Shown here one piece after another: positions 13 to 56,437 of a DNA stretch of 64,000 nt. Numbering within the stretch: the stretch's first letter is position 1; every line of letters begins with the position of its first letter. Origin of the DNA: Escherichia coli (GTDB lineage Bacteria > Pseudomonadota > Gammaproteobacteria > Enterobacterales > Enterobacteriaceae); NCBI RefSeq assembly GCF_024700885.2, contig NZ_CP117016.1; one strand, given 5' to 3'. Made by a program: the position numbers and the translations under genes. The notes below the pieces were generated by a model. It searched no databases. It was not told the origin of the DNA and saw nothing but the letters and a program-made list of their open reading frames with translations.

Positions 13-663
13 TCAGAAAATGCGCTCCTGATGCACCCATACCGCTGCTTCCACGCGAGACTTGAGCTTCATTTTCTTCAGCATGTGCTTGACGTGCACT
101 TTTACTGTGCTTTCGGTGATGTCCAGGCGGCGGGCAATCATCTTGTTCGGCAAACCCTGGGCAATCAGCTTGAGAATATCGCGCTCGCGTGGGGTTAACT
201 GGTTAACATCGCGTTCAGTCGTGGCACGGTTAGCGCGCAAGCTGGCGGCCAGAACCGGCGTTAATGCTTCGCTTAATACCATTTCGCCAGCAGCTGCCTG
301 ATGCAATGCTTTCAGCAGATCTTCCGGCTCCATATCTTTTAACAGATAGCCATCCGCGCCGCGTTTCAGTGCGGTGACCACATCTTCTTCATGGTTAGAG
401 ACGCTGAATACCACAATGCGCCCGGAGAGGGACTTTTCGCGCAGTTTATCCAGCGTTTCCAGACCATTCATGCCGGGCATATTGAGATCTAACAGGATCA
501 GATCGGGATCAAGAGATTCCGCCAGTTCAATACCCTGTTCGCCATTACTCGCTTCGCCAACCACGGTGATATCTGGTGCCATACTGATAAGCTGTTTTAC
601 GCCAGTTCGCAGCATCGGGTGATCGTCGATCAGCAGGATAGTAGCCGGTTCCTGATTACTCAT
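13..663 (-). CDS. narL: nitrate/nitrite response regulator NarL
   Basis: ORF 13..777(-); from the internal Met ([19 protein letters not shown]...) it is a 216-aa receiver + LuxR-type HTH protein recognised as NarL. Confidence 0.93.
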
Positions 664-11417: not shown

Positions 11418-12132
11418 GTGATGGTGGTGGGGGAAGGATTACTCAGCGCTGCGCGCTTCACCCTTCGGGTCGTTGCCTGCGGCAACGCTTTCTCGCTGGC
11501 GCTCGAGTCGCACCTTGGTCGAAGCTTCTCATCCTTCCCCGCATGGGCAGAATATTTAATTGCGGATTCGTTTGAGAGTTCACGGACTTTTGAAAAGTGA
11601 TGGTGGTGGGGGAAGGATTACTCAGCGCTGCGCGCTTCGCCCTTCGGGTCGTTGCCTGCGGCAACGCTCTCTCGCTGGCGCTCGAGTCGAACCTTGGTCG
11701 AAGCTTCTCATCCTTCCCCGCATGGGCAGAATATTTAATCGCGGATTCGTTTGAGAGTTCACGGACTTTTGAAAGTGATGGTGGTGGGGGAAGGATTACT
11801 CAGCGCTGCGCGCTTCGCCCTTCGGGTCGTTGCCTGCGGCCACGCTCTCTCGTTGGCGCTCGAGTCGAACCTTGGTCGAAGCTTCTCATCCTTCCCCCGC
11901 TTGGGCAGAATATTTAATTACGGATTCGTTTGAGAGTTCAGGGACTTTTGAAAGTGATGGTGGTGGGGGAAGGATTACTCAGCGCTGCGCGCTTCGCCCT
12001 TCGGGTCGTTGCCTGCGGCCACGCTCTCTCGCTGGCGCTCGAGTCGAACCTTGGTCGAAGCTTCTCATCCTTCCCCGCATGGGCAGAATATTTAATCGCG
12101 GATTCGTTTGAGAGTTCACGGACTTTTGAAAG
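11418..12132 (-). repeat. rtT: rtT tandem repeats downstream of tyrV (four ~178-179-bp units, each ending in the tRNA-Tyr 3' segment)
   Basis: Unit starts at 11418, 11597, 11775, 11954 (next unit is tyrV at 12133), plus a degenerate partial unit at ~11340-11417; an Arg-rich small ORF ([24 protein letters not shown], ~11458-11532, -) resembles the recalled protamine-like Tpr. Confidence 0.8.
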
Positions 12133-12135
12133 TGA

Positions 12136-12220
<85 letters not shown>

Positions 12221-12254
12221 AGGGGTAATTCAAATTTTGAGGTAATGCTTGAGA

Positions 12255-12339
<85 letters not shown>

Positions 12340-41834: not shown

Positions 41835-42389
41835 TTATTTTAAGGAAAGCAACTGCTCTACGGTCATATTTTTAATTGCGCTCCGGTTTACAAGAGTCCA
41901 GCCTTGTTGCTCCAGATAAAACAGGAAGGTATCCAGGGTGCAGACCATTGCGCCGTCAGGAACGGTTTCAGTGAATTTGATATTGCCGTGTTCGTCGAGA
42001 CGGATAACCAGGGTGCGTCCGTCCCCGTGAATCATTTTGTCGGGAGACGGGGCGTTATTCTGGCGCAGTTCAGCTTCCATGCGGTCGAACTCAGCAATGT
42101 ATGCCTCTTTAAATGCAGCGGCTTTTTTGCCAGTGAAGCCCATCACCAGGAAAACGAAGCCGTTTTTGGTGATTTGGTACATTGGGAGTTTGCGCCCGGT
42201 TGAGTCGGTGTATTCGCTCGACACAAAATTGTGCTCAGTGAATTTTGCTGAACAGTCCAGATTGCGAATTTTATCCAACACTCGTTCGTGGCGTTTGCCA
42301 AAGAACTCGGCGATCGCAACAGACGTAGTGACAGCGCGACCATTTTCGATGGTTACGTCAGGGTGAGAAAGGGTAAGGATAGTAGCCAT
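41835..42389 (-). CDS. Rha-family phage regulatory protein
   Basis: ORF 41835..42686; the segment from the Met at 42389 (MATILTLSHPDVTIENGRAVTTSVAIAEFFGKRHERVLDKIRNL...) resembles the Rha family; the N-terminal extension in the ORF track is probably not translated. Confidence 0.65.
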   Translation of the reverse strand: MATILTLSHPDVTIENGRAVTTSVAIAEFFGKRHERVLDKIRNLDCSAKFTEHNFVSSEYTDSTGRKLPMYQITKNGFVFLVMGFTGKKAAAFKEAYIAEFDRMEAELRQNNAPSPDKMIHGDGRTLVIRLDEHGNIKFTETVPDGAMVCTLDTFLFYLEQQGWTLVNRSAIKNMTVEQLLSLK

Positions 42390-43253
42390 GATGGCAGCCT
42401 CCGCGATGAATTTGATTAACTCACCACCGAGGTTTTCCACGACCATAAGGGTGGTGAGACGTACAGGGGTGGAAATACCGGTCATCACGGAACCCGGCCA
42501 GCCTTGCGGCTGCCCTGCACGCCCCACCATAATGCGAATGTGGCTGTGCTTAACGCATAAAAAAACCGCCTGAGCGCGGTTATGCGCCGTGAATGATTTC
42601 GGGTTTCCACGCCCGGCACCCGTTTTATGAGGTGCAGGTGCACTATAATTCCACCCGTTCTGGTTTTCAATAGCTACATTCAACATTTTCTCTACCTTTC
42701 ATCACCGAAGTGAACTTTGTTGATGCGGTGCCTGGTGCCTCCAGGTGATGTTAACCAGTTAACAATTAACGCCGGATACAGAGAATCCACCCATAACACT
42801 GTTTTTGGTTTTAACTGTTCCGCGTGCGCTGAGCCGCATTCACCGCATCACAAAATTCACTTTAAAAAGGGCGGCAGAGCAGTCACGGAGTAAAACTGAT
42901 ACCGCCAAAAGTCACCAGAAAATTGATAACAGAGGGCGTTGCAGCGGAGTTGTCACTTAAGCGTATGGTCAACCTGACAACCCGGTGTCCTCAACGGGGG
43001 AAGGAATAACCCCGCCATACTTACCGCCGCGCCATTTCGCGGAGTGCCACAACCGGAAGCGCACGGTCGAACTAAATTTAACGACACCGTACAGAGAGAC
43101 CAATTTCGCCGTGCGCTTTCGCGTTATGCCCTGACTTTTCAGGGACATATCCTTTCAGTAAACTGTCAGTGCCGGATGTTCACCCGTGTCCGGCGCACGC
43201 ACTCCACCTGACCCGTGGAGAACTCCTTAATTACCAACCCTCAGGAGGGTGAA

Positions 43254-43532
43254 ATGGATAAAAAGCAAATTGAGGCCCTGCAATCTATTATTGAAAAACA
43301 AGATGAAGCTATCAGGATTCTTTCATATCGCACTGATATGATACTAAATATGCTTTCTGCATTAACGGCTGCGCTTGGTGGTACAAAAACAAACGTATAC
43401 CGCGAAGTTGTTATTCAACAGATAGATAAATTTGAAAAAACCATACCAGGTATTAATGCTCATCTTGCAGAACAAGAGAAAGACCATGCTCTTATGGCAA
43501 TTTCTTCAGTAGCTCTCCCGAAAGTTGAGTAG
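43254..43532 (+). CDS. hypothetical protein, oriented against the early-left operon
   Basis: ORF 43215..43532; ATG at 43254 preceded by AGGAGG; 93 aa, predicted helical. Confidence 0.5.
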   Translation: MDKKQIEALQSIIEKQDEAIRILSYRTDMILNMLSALTAALGGTKTNVYREVVIQQIDKFEKTIPGINAHLAEQEKDHALMAISSVALPKVE

Positions 43533-44138: not shown

Positions 44139-44239
44139 GTTCTTACGCCTCGGGCTGGCTACTTACCCCCTGACCACTGCTTGGTAACTCGAAGTATTGC
44201 CCGGCGTTCTGTGGGGCGGGGTGGGTTGGTATGTTGTTA

Positions 44240-44270
44240 AGGTAACAAGAGTTACCTTTCGAGTCAATAC
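44240..44270 (-). promoter_or_regulatory. putative PL/OL: -35 TTGACT with operator palindrome GGTAAC-N4-GTTACC
   Basis: On the minus strand TTGACT (44262-44267) followed by palindrome ggtaacaagagttacc (44241-44256); same half-site as the operators at the cI-cro junction. Confidence 0.45.
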
Positions 44271-44297
44271 AATGTTGCAAAAGGTACATTTGAGGGC

Positions 44298-44325
44298 ATA
44301 AAAAACCCGCAATGAATGCGGGTTC
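44298..44325 (-). terminator. terminator immediately downstream of the repressor gene
   Basis: On the minus strand, stem aacccgcattcattgcgggtt followed by TTTTTTAT. Confidence 0.65.
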
Positions 44326-50528: not shown

Positions 50529-50739
50529 TTTCATATTGGCGAGGTGACGGGAGTTAAGTAGAATGGCTGCGGGTGCTTGAGGCTATCTGTCTCAGGCATG
50601 AACACCAAAGGCAGATAGAGAAAAGCCCCAGTTAACATTACGCGTCCTGCAAGACGCTTAACATTAATCTGAGGCCATATCTATGCTCTACACACGTAGG
50701 TTAGCCTCTTACGTGCCGAAAGGCAAGGAGAAGCAGGCT

Positions 50740-50895
50740 ATGAAGCAGCAAAAGGCGATGCTAATCGCCCTGATCGTCATCTGTTTAACCGTCATGGTGA
50801 CGGCACTGGTAACGAGGAAAGACCTCTGCGAGGTACGAATCCGAACCGGCCAGACGGAGGTCGCTGTCTTCACAGCTTACGAACCTGAGGAGTAA
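50740..50895 (+). CDS. hok: Hok/Gef-family type I toxin
   Basis: MKQQKAMLIALIVICLTVMVTALVTRKDLCEVRIRTGQTEVAVFTAYEPEE (51 aa) with AAGGAG Shine-Dalgarno; the in-frame upstream extension from 50683 may be a mok-like leader frame. Confidence 0.85.
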   Translation: MKQQKAMLIALIVICLTVMVTALVTRKDLCEVRIRTGQTEVAVFTAYEPEE

Positions 50896-55273: not shown

Positions 55274-55349
55274 GGCCCTTTAGCTCAGTGGTGAGAGCGA
55301 GCGACTCATAATCGCCAGGTCGCTGGTTCAAATCCAGCAAGGGCCACCA
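55274..55349 (+). tRNA. tRNA-Ile (anticodon CAU, ileZ-like) or tRNA-Met
   Basis: 76 nt; perfect 7-bp acceptor stem (GGCCCTT/AAGGGCC), D and T arms, anticodon loop CTCATAA, 3' CCA. Confidence 0.85.
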
Positions 55350-55449
55350 TCACAAACCGCCATTAGCTTATCAGGAAGAGCAGACGACACGATAACAGGG
55401 TTGTTGGTGCGGGGGCGGGTCCCCGATGGCGGTCCATTATCGGTATTCA

Positions 55450-55526
55450 GCGTTGTTAGCTCAGCCGGACAGAGCAATTGCCTTCTAAGCAATCGGTCAC
55501 TGGTTCGAATCCAGTACAGCGCGCCA
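55450..55526 (+). tRNA. tRNA-Arg (anticodon UCU, argN/argO-like)
   Basis: 77 nt; acceptor stem GCGTTGT/ACAGCGC, anticodon loop CTTCTAA, T loop TTCGAAT, 3' CCA. Confidence 0.85.
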
Positions 55527-55990: not shown

Positions 55991-56437
55991 ATACATATCT
56001 GGATTATCACCGGTTACGGTAAAAAGTGATTGCTTACTGTTTTTGTGAATGGCATTGCAGCAGCCGGATAATGTCAGTGCTGGCTGACGGTGTGCTGGTG
56101 GCGGGTGTGGTGGTTGCTGCTTTCCCGTTGCTGAAAAAGAAAACGCCAGACTGTTAGCCGGGTATCAGTTAGCGGGAGAAATTTTTAAATACTTCACAAT
56201 TCAGGCGGTTGACTGTTGTCTGGTTTGCGGGGAGTTTGTTAAAAGAAACTGGCATGGTGAATCCCCCTGTGCGGAGGGGCAATCAGCGAGTAGGTATATG
56301 GGATAATCGCGGATTCAGGTGCTGGTACTGAATTCACCGGGAGGCACCCGGCACCATGCAATGGCACATAGCGCCACTCTCCAGCCCCTCTCCGGAGGGG
56401 CTGTTTATATTGATTTTGTCAGATGTGAGTAAACTCC

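Follow-up and report, generated by a model that had tools for sequence, protein, structure and literature searches.

The interval at positions 42690-43253 of the window, by which we mean the whole 64,000-nucleotide stretch of Escherichia coli DNA that was analysed, is very probably the untranslated DicF module of the early-left operon of a lambdoid prophage, lying on the minus strand and processed as in K-12. The apparently empty gap of 0.56 kb (really ~0.86 kb) holds three curated RNA genes, i.e., DicF, IsrK and C4. Judged by its sequence, the DicF region is probably functional, but it is already known, and current understanding is unchanged. The transcription and processing of the corresponding untranslated region of the K-12 prophage Qin have been published (PMC10448788, PMC5069750), and for dicF and its "long untranslated region" in the Qin dicBF operon Faubladier 1990 is cited as well. 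The window holds a further copy of a well-studied prophage regulator, in an arrangement of DicF with IsrK-C4-Rha that is common (314 genomes). Identity, homology, conservation and predicted structure were computed here; transcription, enzymes and targets are taken from the K-12 Qin literature. By analogy, we infer that the K-12 pathway operates in this prophage, and its exact cleavage positions and promoter are placed on the same footing.

DicF and the conserved block around it

Rfam models were run in a permissive scan of 38-48 kb and then over the whole window at gathering thresholds, and DicF, isrK and C4 passed both. The DicF model (RF00039) matches 42869-42920 over its full length (model positions 1-52) at 75.8 bits (E = 1e-15; gathering score 48). 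The gene (Table 1) is identical to K-12 dicF (b1574) at 52 of 53 bases, the sole change being G12U, which lies in the single-stranded 5′ part of DicF, whereas the 3′ part is the same as in K-12. The 100 sequences compared have G (85), A (11) or T (4) at this position (42910). RNAfold gives −15.9 kcal/mol for the 53-mer, and the 3′ end of the 53-nt form is made by Rho-independent termination (PMC5069750).

Mature K-12 DicF is an Hfq-dependent base-pairing sRNA, which represses ftsZ via its 3′ part and xylR via its 5′ part, as well as pykA and manX, as described in the K-12 literature. Since G12U falls in the 5′ pairing region, the 5′-end targets of this DicF allele may differ. The duplex of the window DicF with the ftsZ leader was calculated at −37.1 kcal/mol, a value not separated from that of shuffles (−32.3 ± 4.1).

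The interval aligns end to end with the ydfC-dicF-dicB untranslated region of K-12 Qin (minus strand), with ~94% identity over ~525 bp. The order is the same in both, i.e., hairpin I, 126-nt body, 53-nt DicF with its terminator, and helix II domain, and so is the place in the early-left operon, downstream of the DUF1391 (ydfA-like) gene. The assignment to DicF is carried by the score, the identity to K-12, the terminator with its U tract, and the embedding between RNase III-type helices, all of which were found. Relative to K-12 Qin, the window has G12U in DicF and another loop allele in hairpin I; in place of ydfB and ydfC it has a 137-aa gene and a 92-aa gene on the opposite strand; the IsrK-C4-Rha antirepressor module is present instead of dicB and ydfD; and the repressor is a LexA/S24-type CI rather than DicA.

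In a megablast search against phage genomes, window ~42711-43253 was found as a block of ~94% identity in many Escherichia and Stx phages, and phage Tritos has DicF annotated at the same spot. Among complete E. coli genomes, 4622 of 5426 have a match, and the whole 881-bp arrangement (DicF + IsrK-C4-Rha) is present in 314, one of them, strain MLI114, at 100% identity. RefSeq/PGAP annotates none of DicF, IsrK and C4 in this identical genome, where the calls in the region are limited to a spurious "DicB" fragment and a Rha ORF that is too long. A scan of genome contigs with the DicF core gave only 2 matches, both in MAGs with unlikely taxonomic labels, and so added no diversity across species.

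Table 1. Coordinates of the RNA, DNA and coding features in and around the interval, with the evidence used for each
Feature	Position	Strand	Basis
Rha-family antirepressor CDS	41835..42390	-	Pfam, ATG/Shine-Dalgarno, codon periodicity
C4-type antisense RNA (P1/P7 immI-like)	42447..42534	-	Rfam RF01695, 81.9 bits vs gathering score 45
IsrK sRNA gene (42559-42635) and promoter-like site	42559..42670	-	Rfam RF01394, promoter/terminator scan
Structured domain, 155 nt, downstream of DicF terminator	42708..42862	-	MFE, shuffles, arm comparison
Hairpin CCUGG-AGGCA-CCAGG, GGAGG within and next to the loop	42731..42745	-	Fold, motif comparison
Perfect palindrome TGTTAAC-NN-GTTAACA (ATGTTAACcAGTTAACA)	42749..42764	-	Inverted repeat, alignment, fold
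DicF Rho-independent terminator, stem GGCGG...GCCGCC (42870-42906) then U5 (42864-42868)	42864..42906	-	Rfam structure line, RNAfold
DicF sRNA gene, 53 nt by K-12 annotation	42869..42921	-	Rfam RF00039 and K-12 identity
Conserved body of 190-nt precursor, 126 nt	42922..43047	-	93-99% column identity, 20-nt bins, 99 loci
Hairpin I, ~21 bp, three single-base interruptions	43048..43128	-	Inverted repeat, folds, z
Hypervariable apical segment of hairpin I, ~20 nt	43086..43105	-	Allele classes
5′ part of conserved untranslated block	43129..43235	-	Alignment, fold test
92-aa gene (PHROG 18692, function not assigned), abutting the block	43254..43532	+	Locus comparison

An IMG/VR scan with the DicF core gave at least 120 stretches, and 99 distinct 900-nt DicF loci (from among the matches listed and other fetched loci) were aligned with the window. 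The conservation that the original prediction had proposed to look for across related prophages was found, the block 42708-43235 being present in all 99 DicF loci compared, with flanks that vary. In 20-nt bins, identity to the window is 0.93-1.00 between ~43128 and 42730, apart from a variable stretch at 43071-43109, and 0.79-0.89 across 43230-43130 (99 loci, among the matches listed); it drops to 0.3-0.4 past ~43240 and past ~42710 in the same 99 loci. On the downstream side, 86 loci carry dicB and 8 carry kil, and the IsrK-Rha type is seen in 5, which include the window; the upstream flank is ydfC in 39 of 99, with a dozen other sequences in the remainder. A conserved block between interchangeable flanks is therefore best read as a discrete, mobile, conserved non-coding module. 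The 126-nt body sits between the putative RNase III hairpin and the DicF 5′ end that RNase E generates in K-12. The 5′ part (43129-43235) has the window form in 66 of 99 loci, related variants in 17 and unrelated sequence in 16, and its fold is not above chance when compared with shuffles (z = −0.84).

The two helices that bracket DicF and the processing expected from K-12

The original prediction held that the interval could encode a structured RNA, and this is borne out by the DicF sRNA gene, its intrinsic terminator, and two long RNase III-type helices. The proposed search with structure prediction and Rfam placed DicF above its gathering score and found two structures that exceed chance, i.e., the hairpin at 43048-43128 and the domain closed by the 42841-42862/42708-42730 helix. 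Neither of these structures appeared in the original prediction, nor were DicF, IsrK and C4 named in it.

Hairpin I, upstream of DicF, consists of a 5′ arm (43106-43128), a loop (43071-43105) and a 3′ arm (43048-43070), and its fold has z = −2.44 relative to shuffles. The stem forms in 41 of 41 distinct alleles folded, each stem pair being paired in 36-41 of them. The changes seen in the stem are one-sided, wobble-compatible or mismatches, with no double compensatory changes, so that the stem is marked by conservation rather than covariation. In K-12, the long DicF species is 190 nt, with an RNase III-dependent 5′ end (PMC10448788). Counting 190 nt back from the K-12 dicF 3′ end leads to the junction between GACCGUGCG and CUUCCGG in the 3′ arm of hairpin I, at ~43059, suggesting by analogy that hairpin I is the RNase III site that makes the 5′ end of this species. 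Cut sites were placed by such length arithmetic from K-12, to within a few nucleotides on either side; the published "813/814" cleavage coordinate could not be matched to the sequence, and the 190-nt and 72-nt lengths were used instead.

Helix II, downstream of the terminator, is a 22-bp long-range helix between a 5′ arm at 42841-42862 and a 3′ arm at 42708-42730, with one bulge at 42721. The domain that it closes has a minimum free energy of −60.8 kcal/mol (z = −4.80), with 0 of 200 shuffles as good. Each of the 18 arm combinations seen, with flanks of the dicB, kil and IsrK types, forms a helix of 20-22 bp; at one position C-G, U-G and U-A are all seen, and the conserved module ends exactly at the helix base. 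A 72-nt form of DicF is made by RNase III in K-12 (PMC5069750), and its expected 3′ end here, ~42850, falls inside the 5′ arm of helix II, which makes this helix, by analogy, the likely second RNase III site.

Two smaller elements lie within the helix II domain. The palindrome at 42749-42764 is invariant in all loci compared (identity 1.00 over 42750-42769) and is predicted to form a 6-bp hairpin in the domain. It was also tried as an operator by looking for repeats of it in the immunity region, and this reading is without support: the only close copy (193-208) is in unrelated DNA, and the palindrome of the pL region, GGTAACTCTTGTTACC, differs from it. The motif of the hairpin at 42731-42745 is also present, with a compensatory change, in the STnc100 element at 56.2 kb. 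Membership of 42716-42857 (minus strand) in STnc100 (RF02076) was rejected, since it scores 32.3 bits where the gathering score is 47 and resembles the full copy at 56223-56412 in no more than one 22-nt hairpin motif, TCACCNGGAGGCACCNGGCACC.

Should the K-12 pathway hold here, induction would lead to transcription, most likely from a pL-like promoter downstream of the cI-like gene, at ~44240-44270. This promoter was read by eye because a consensus promoter scan near 44240-44270 found none there. The transcript would pass the DUF1391 (ydfA-like) gene, the 137-aa gene and then the DicF module, where RNase III would cut hairpin I to give a ~190-nt species, which RNase E would trim to the 53-nt DicF, with the 3′ end set by the intrinsic terminator. 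The 53-nt form is indeed RNase E-dependent in K-12 (PMC10448788). Read-through transcripts would be recut by RNase III in helix II, giving the 72-nt form and parting DicF from the downstream RNA. On induction, the DicF so made would be expected to block host cell division and alter metabolism, rewiring that of sugars. For work on DicF biogenesis, the module offers ready constructs, with its two bracketing helices, sharp borders, hypervariable loop and adjacent antisense gene slot.

The hypervariable segment at the apex of hairpin I falls into at least six unrelated allele classes, with sizes of 65, 32, 9, 9, 5 and 2 among 122 loci, unlike the 3′ half of the loop (GUCGUUAAAUUU), which is conserved; outside the segment, the block is conserved at 94-100%. 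It is conceivable, though quite improbable, that RNase III excises the apical stem-loop and that its loop gives the DicF module a second, lineage-specific RNA function. If so, the loop would be a specificity determinant or a separate small regulatory RNA, e.g., a kissing-loop or antisense element that tells apart co-resident DicF prophages or hits different host transcripts. No second copy of the loop was found in the window. In an ungapped scan for partners with Watson-Crick and G-U pairs over 78 loci, the mean score was 28.9 when a locus was scanned with its own allele and 27.3 when it was scanned with others, which gives no partner signal for the loop.

Composition, reading frames and signals of the interval

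The original prediction described the interval as GC-rich DNA with inverted repeats and without a gene. Its GC content is 51.4%, higher than that of all compared neighbours (36.9-49.1% over the flanking genes), with 48.9% for the Rha CDS, 36.9% for the plus-strand gene and 42.5% for the 137-aa gene, and the ORFs inside 42690-43253 are of 35-59 aa only, with no conserved ORF. The repeats are also in place: CGCATAAAAAAACCGCCTGAGCGCGGTTATGCG at 42554-42586 (42553-42585 had been given, one base off), CCGGATGTTCACCCGTGTCCGG at 43172-43193, and the pair ATGTTAACCAGTTAACA at 42748-42764, within which 42749-42755 and 42758-42764 form a perfect 7+7 inverted repeat. The repeats, the GC content and the small ORFs therefore confirm the observation. 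As examples of hairpins, the first repeat is the IsrK terminator and stands as such; the segment of the second is no better than shuffles, and the minimum-free-energy fold of 43129-43235 does not use the hairpin. The placement between the Rha gene and the early-left genes needs adjustment at both borders. The left border at 42690 is that of an over-extended ORF, arising because a 283-aa ORF reaches 42686, and the right neighbour is a plus-strand gene, not an early-left gene. Since the IsrK and C4 RNA genes continue to 42391, the non-coding stretch is ~860 bp rather than ~560 bp.

A genuine coding gene, the discovery of which would refute the original prediction by its own terms, was looked for, and the ORFs have starts or frames that are mostly not conserved and no third-position excess. 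Of 99 loci, 3, 14 and 36 retain the starts of three interval ORFs, the loci differ by a 1-nt indel at 43000 (48 vs 47), and a third-codon-position excess was found in none of the interval ORFs. The candidates for a small protein are a "DicB" fragment at 42716-42799 (minus strand), called by PGAP in the 100%-identical genome with its C-terminus missing, and a plus-strand ORF at 43044-43211. The ORF at 42692-42799 on the minus strand is open in 85 of 99 loci, and the plus-strand ORF, although it spans the variable loop, in 75. However, the ORFs stay open because the DNA is near-invariant, and the variable alleles show a flat distribution over the three codon positions (13/14/21 in the minus-strand ORF; 50/61/58 in the plus-strand one, where the loop alleles would give unrelated residues). 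The "DicB" fragment, moreover, matches only 35 codons that are open in frame upstream of the K-12 dicB ATG (VLWVDSLYPALIVNWLTSPGGTRH...), lies inside the RNA domain with z = −4.8, and lacks a Shine-Dalgarno sequence; the 62-aa DicB coding sequence is absent in this phage, so that homology to DicB itself was not found. The PGAP call is an artefact of the in-frame extension upstream of dicB. A hidden coding gene is rejected on the mostly non-conserved starts and frames, the 1-nt indel and the lack of codon periodicity, and the chance that either candidate encodes a genuine protein is extremely small.

The original prediction also offered nut-like antitermination and termination signals, of which the second holds in part, with the DicF terminator inside the interval and the terminator of the neighbouring IsrK sRNA at 42554-42586. 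Nut-like signals, i.e., a boxA and a boxB hairpin, would carry early-left transcription past these terminators, which do lie within the operon, ahead of genes (Rha, exonuclease) whose expression is still required. The interval likewise resembles lambda nutL/nutR in being untranslated and rich in hairpins and in its early place in a leftward phage operon, and CCCUGAAAAGUCAGGG at ~43128-43143 is faintly like the 5′ half of the lambda boxB. However, boxA (YGCTCTTTA) has no match on the minus strand inside 42690-43253; the nearest boxA-like match, with one mismatch, is just outside (43259-43267), and such matches are at chance level window-wide (25 found, 24.5 expected). The boxB-like stem CCCUGAAAAG...CAGGG (CCCUGA/UCAGGG) is cut to 4 bp in the commonest allele, and its segment, at z = −0.84, is no better than shuffles, so that neither boxA nor a conserved boxB-type stem-loop is at hand, in contrast to lambda. 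Among the early-left products scanned, there was no match to an N-type family; Pfam gave DUF1391 for one product and no match for the 137-aa and 92-aa products, although a factor of a new family may escape such a scan. In K-12, downstream expression is explained by partial read-through (PMC10448788). The nut-like reading was rejected on the chance-level boxA and the non-conserved boxB-like stem, and its probability is close to nil.

The block is adjoined by a plus-strand gene in ~36 of 99 loci compared. The 92-aa gene of the window is one of at least six unrelated small genes of 64-92 aa that occupy this slot. Five of the six belong to PHROG families of unknown function, and all are preceded by a ribosome-binding region of the GGAGG type, which reads CTCAGGAGGGTGAA-ATG in four and CAATGGAGGATAAA-ATG in two. 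It is possible, but unlikely, that the 5′ part of the block (~43129-43253, plus strand) is a common promoter or leader for interchangeable antisense genes, whose transcripts would overlap the DicF precursor. This would fit with the start of the interchangeable genes behind a common GGAGG-type region, with the conservation of the sequence upstream of them across cargo types, and with a plus-strand promoter-like site TTAACA-16-GAGAAT at 42759-42786, in the invariant part. However, this site matches at 9 of 12 positions, and such sites are no more frequent than expected by chance (3 found, 3.3 expected); a scan of plus-strand 42921-43253 found no promoter-like site with 9/12 or more matches. The block sequence is likewise kept in the 39 ydfC-type loci that lack the plus-strand gene, and a K-12 study, in which the sense strand was examined, reported no additional promoter in the operon (PMC10448788). 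Even if correct, an antisense leader would add to the DicF explanation of the interval and not replace it.

The IsrK-C4-Rha module and its relatives

The IsrK-C4 module lies mostly outside 42690-43253, and of the hairpins named in the original prediction only the first (42554-42586) belongs to it. The isrK model (RF01394) scores 67.7 bits against a gathering score of 50. The promoter-like site TTGAAA-17-TATAGT at 42642-42670 is correctly placed for the IsrK 5′ end, and the promoter and terminator scan gave a Rho-independent terminator with a stem at 42564-42581 and U7. The C4 RNA follows between IsrK and the antirepressor gene, and the two RNAs are in tandem in 8 of 8 other phage loci (68-84% identity), i.e., 9 of 9 with the window. 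The annotations of these eight loci disagree, showing long sense ORFs, antisense ORFs or nothing.

Across the nine loci, compensatory changes are seen in IsrK hairpin 1, the IsrK terminator and the C4 stems, and some of the indels in the IsrK-C4 leader have lengths that are not multiples of three. The scores, the tandem order and this RNA-type evolution all identify 42447-42670 as an immI-like IsrK-C4 module. The 283-aa ORF to 42686, which PGAP calls as well, runs across both RNAs; because the leader has an open frame joined to that of rha, a single 283-aa protein is annotated. The Pfam Phage_pRha match begins only at aa 120 of this ORF. Counted by codon position, the pairwise differences show a flat profile in the leader (263/276/231) and a strongly periodic one after the ATG at 42390 (80/39/127), and this ATG is conserved together with a preceding GGAGG in 7 of 9 loci. 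On the flat leader, the periodic coding sequence and the conserved ATG and GGAGG, Rha most likely starts at ATG 42390. A longer Rha isoform may start from ATG 42531, which corresponds to the position of orf45 in Gifsy-1 (PMC4825925).

Two known systems, IsrK-orf45-AnrP of the Salmonella prophage Gifsy-1 (RF01394; PMC4825925) and immI of P1/P7 (c4-icd-ant; RF01695, RF03163), resemble this part of the operon, in which a promoter is followed by IsrK and its terminator, then by a C4-like RNA and an antirepressor gene. In contrast to both, the IsrK-C4 module here directly follows the DicF module, as it does in 314 of 5426 complete E. coli genomes.

The Rha leader, its annotation and its insertion

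The leader of the antirepressor gene, at 42391-42686 (-), is included in the 283-aa open reading frame annotated by PGAP as "Rha"; it contains the C4 RNA as well as IsrK together with both its promoter and its terminator. The Pfam match of this frame to Phage_ASH (PF10554) spans aa 14-109 (60.8 bits), which is exactly this leader. Compensatory stem changes and the absence of codon periodicity show that the leader evolves as RNA does, and yet one open frame across isrK and C4 is retained in 8 of 9 loci. The coincidence of the Phage_ASH match with a leader that evolves like RNA suggests that the Ash "protein family" may, at least here, be the conceptual translation of an RNA locus.

None of the three RNAs (DicF, IsrK and C4) is annotated in the RefSeq/PGAP record of the identical genome, which places a pseudogene, "DicB, missing C-terminus", at 42716-42799 (-). 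This assignment to DicB was rejected, as the interval equals instead an in-frame open extension 5′ of the K-12 dicB ATG.

In E. coli 042 (locus L004), DicF and IsrK-C4-Rha are arranged as in the window and are followed by intact dicB and a DUF1482 gene, whereas in the window IsrK-C4-Rha is followed by YdaE-family and hypothetical genes. Given the intact dicB beyond IsrK-C4-Rha in E. coli 042, the antirepressor module appears to have been inserted between dicB and the DicF domain.

Variation and relatives of the DicF module

Within the DicF module, which is otherwise 94-100% conserved around it, the apical loop segment of hairpin I (the predicted RNase III hairpin) at 43086-43105 (-) is hypervariable, falling into at least six unrelated allele classes; a search in cis for a complementary partner of this loop found none. 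Position 12 of DicF (window 42910, -) is U here, as in 4 of 100 sequences, with G in 85 and A in 11. This position lies within the 5′ single-stranded part, and the 3′ ftsZ-pairing part is unaltered. In K-12 DicF, the 5′ single-stranded part is used for xylR-type targets.

The full STnc100 element of the late region has only one hairpin, TCACC(U/G)GGAGGCACC(A/C)GGCACC, in common with the DicF-downstream domain (42724-42747, -), and the stem of this hairpin shows a compensatory change. The sequence GGTTAACTGGTTAACA at 193-208 (+) is identical at 15 of 16 positions to the invariant palindrome of the same domain; it sits near the beginning of the window, where the DNA is unrelated, and was judged coincidental.

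In a collection of one genome per species, the DicF core gave only two matches (L006 and L007), both in MAGs (one from soil, labelled "Proteobacteria bacterium", the other labelled "Lachnospiraceae bacterium"), which are probably mis-binned enterobacterial prophage contigs. The E. coli representative genome of that collection contained no exact match to the core.

Neighbouring genes, other RNAs and a candidate pL

Directly abutting the DicF block is a slot whose occupants, oriented opposite to the early-left operon, are interchangeable: genes for at least six unrelated small proteins of 64-92 aa. Five belong to PHROG families of unknown function, and no Pfam match was obtained among the at least six unrelated types. 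A GGAGG-type ribosome-binding region is common to the slot genes (CTCAGGAGGGTGAA-ATG in four, CAATGGAGGATAAA-ATG in two), and no promoter was identified for them. The slot resembles a hotspot for morons or accessory genes. Elsewhere in the window, the sok match implies that the prophage would carry a hok/sok-type module.

Slot gene and Rfam matches in the window
Feature	Position	Strand	Score (bits)	Remarks
Slot gene	43254-43532	+		Window copy; other occupants in loci L002, L012, L015, L022, L026, L078 and others
STnc100, full element	56223-56412	+	132	Late region; 3′ of two tRNA genes
sok antitoxin RNA	50571-50745	+	114.7	Rfam
Four RtT repeats and two tRNA matches	11422-12339	-		Rfam; tyrT-like locus
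Two further tRNA genes	55274-55523	+		Rfam; 5′ of STnc100

A terminator-like hairpin and its U tract (~44299-44323, -) lie downstream of the cI-like gene and precede a candidate pL recognized by eye, with TTGACT (44262-44267), a 17-nt spacer and TACCTT (44239-44244); a consensus promoter scan reported none at 44239-44323 (-). The palindrome GGTAAC-TCTT-GTTACC (44241-44256), located in the spacer of this candidate, is a likely operator.
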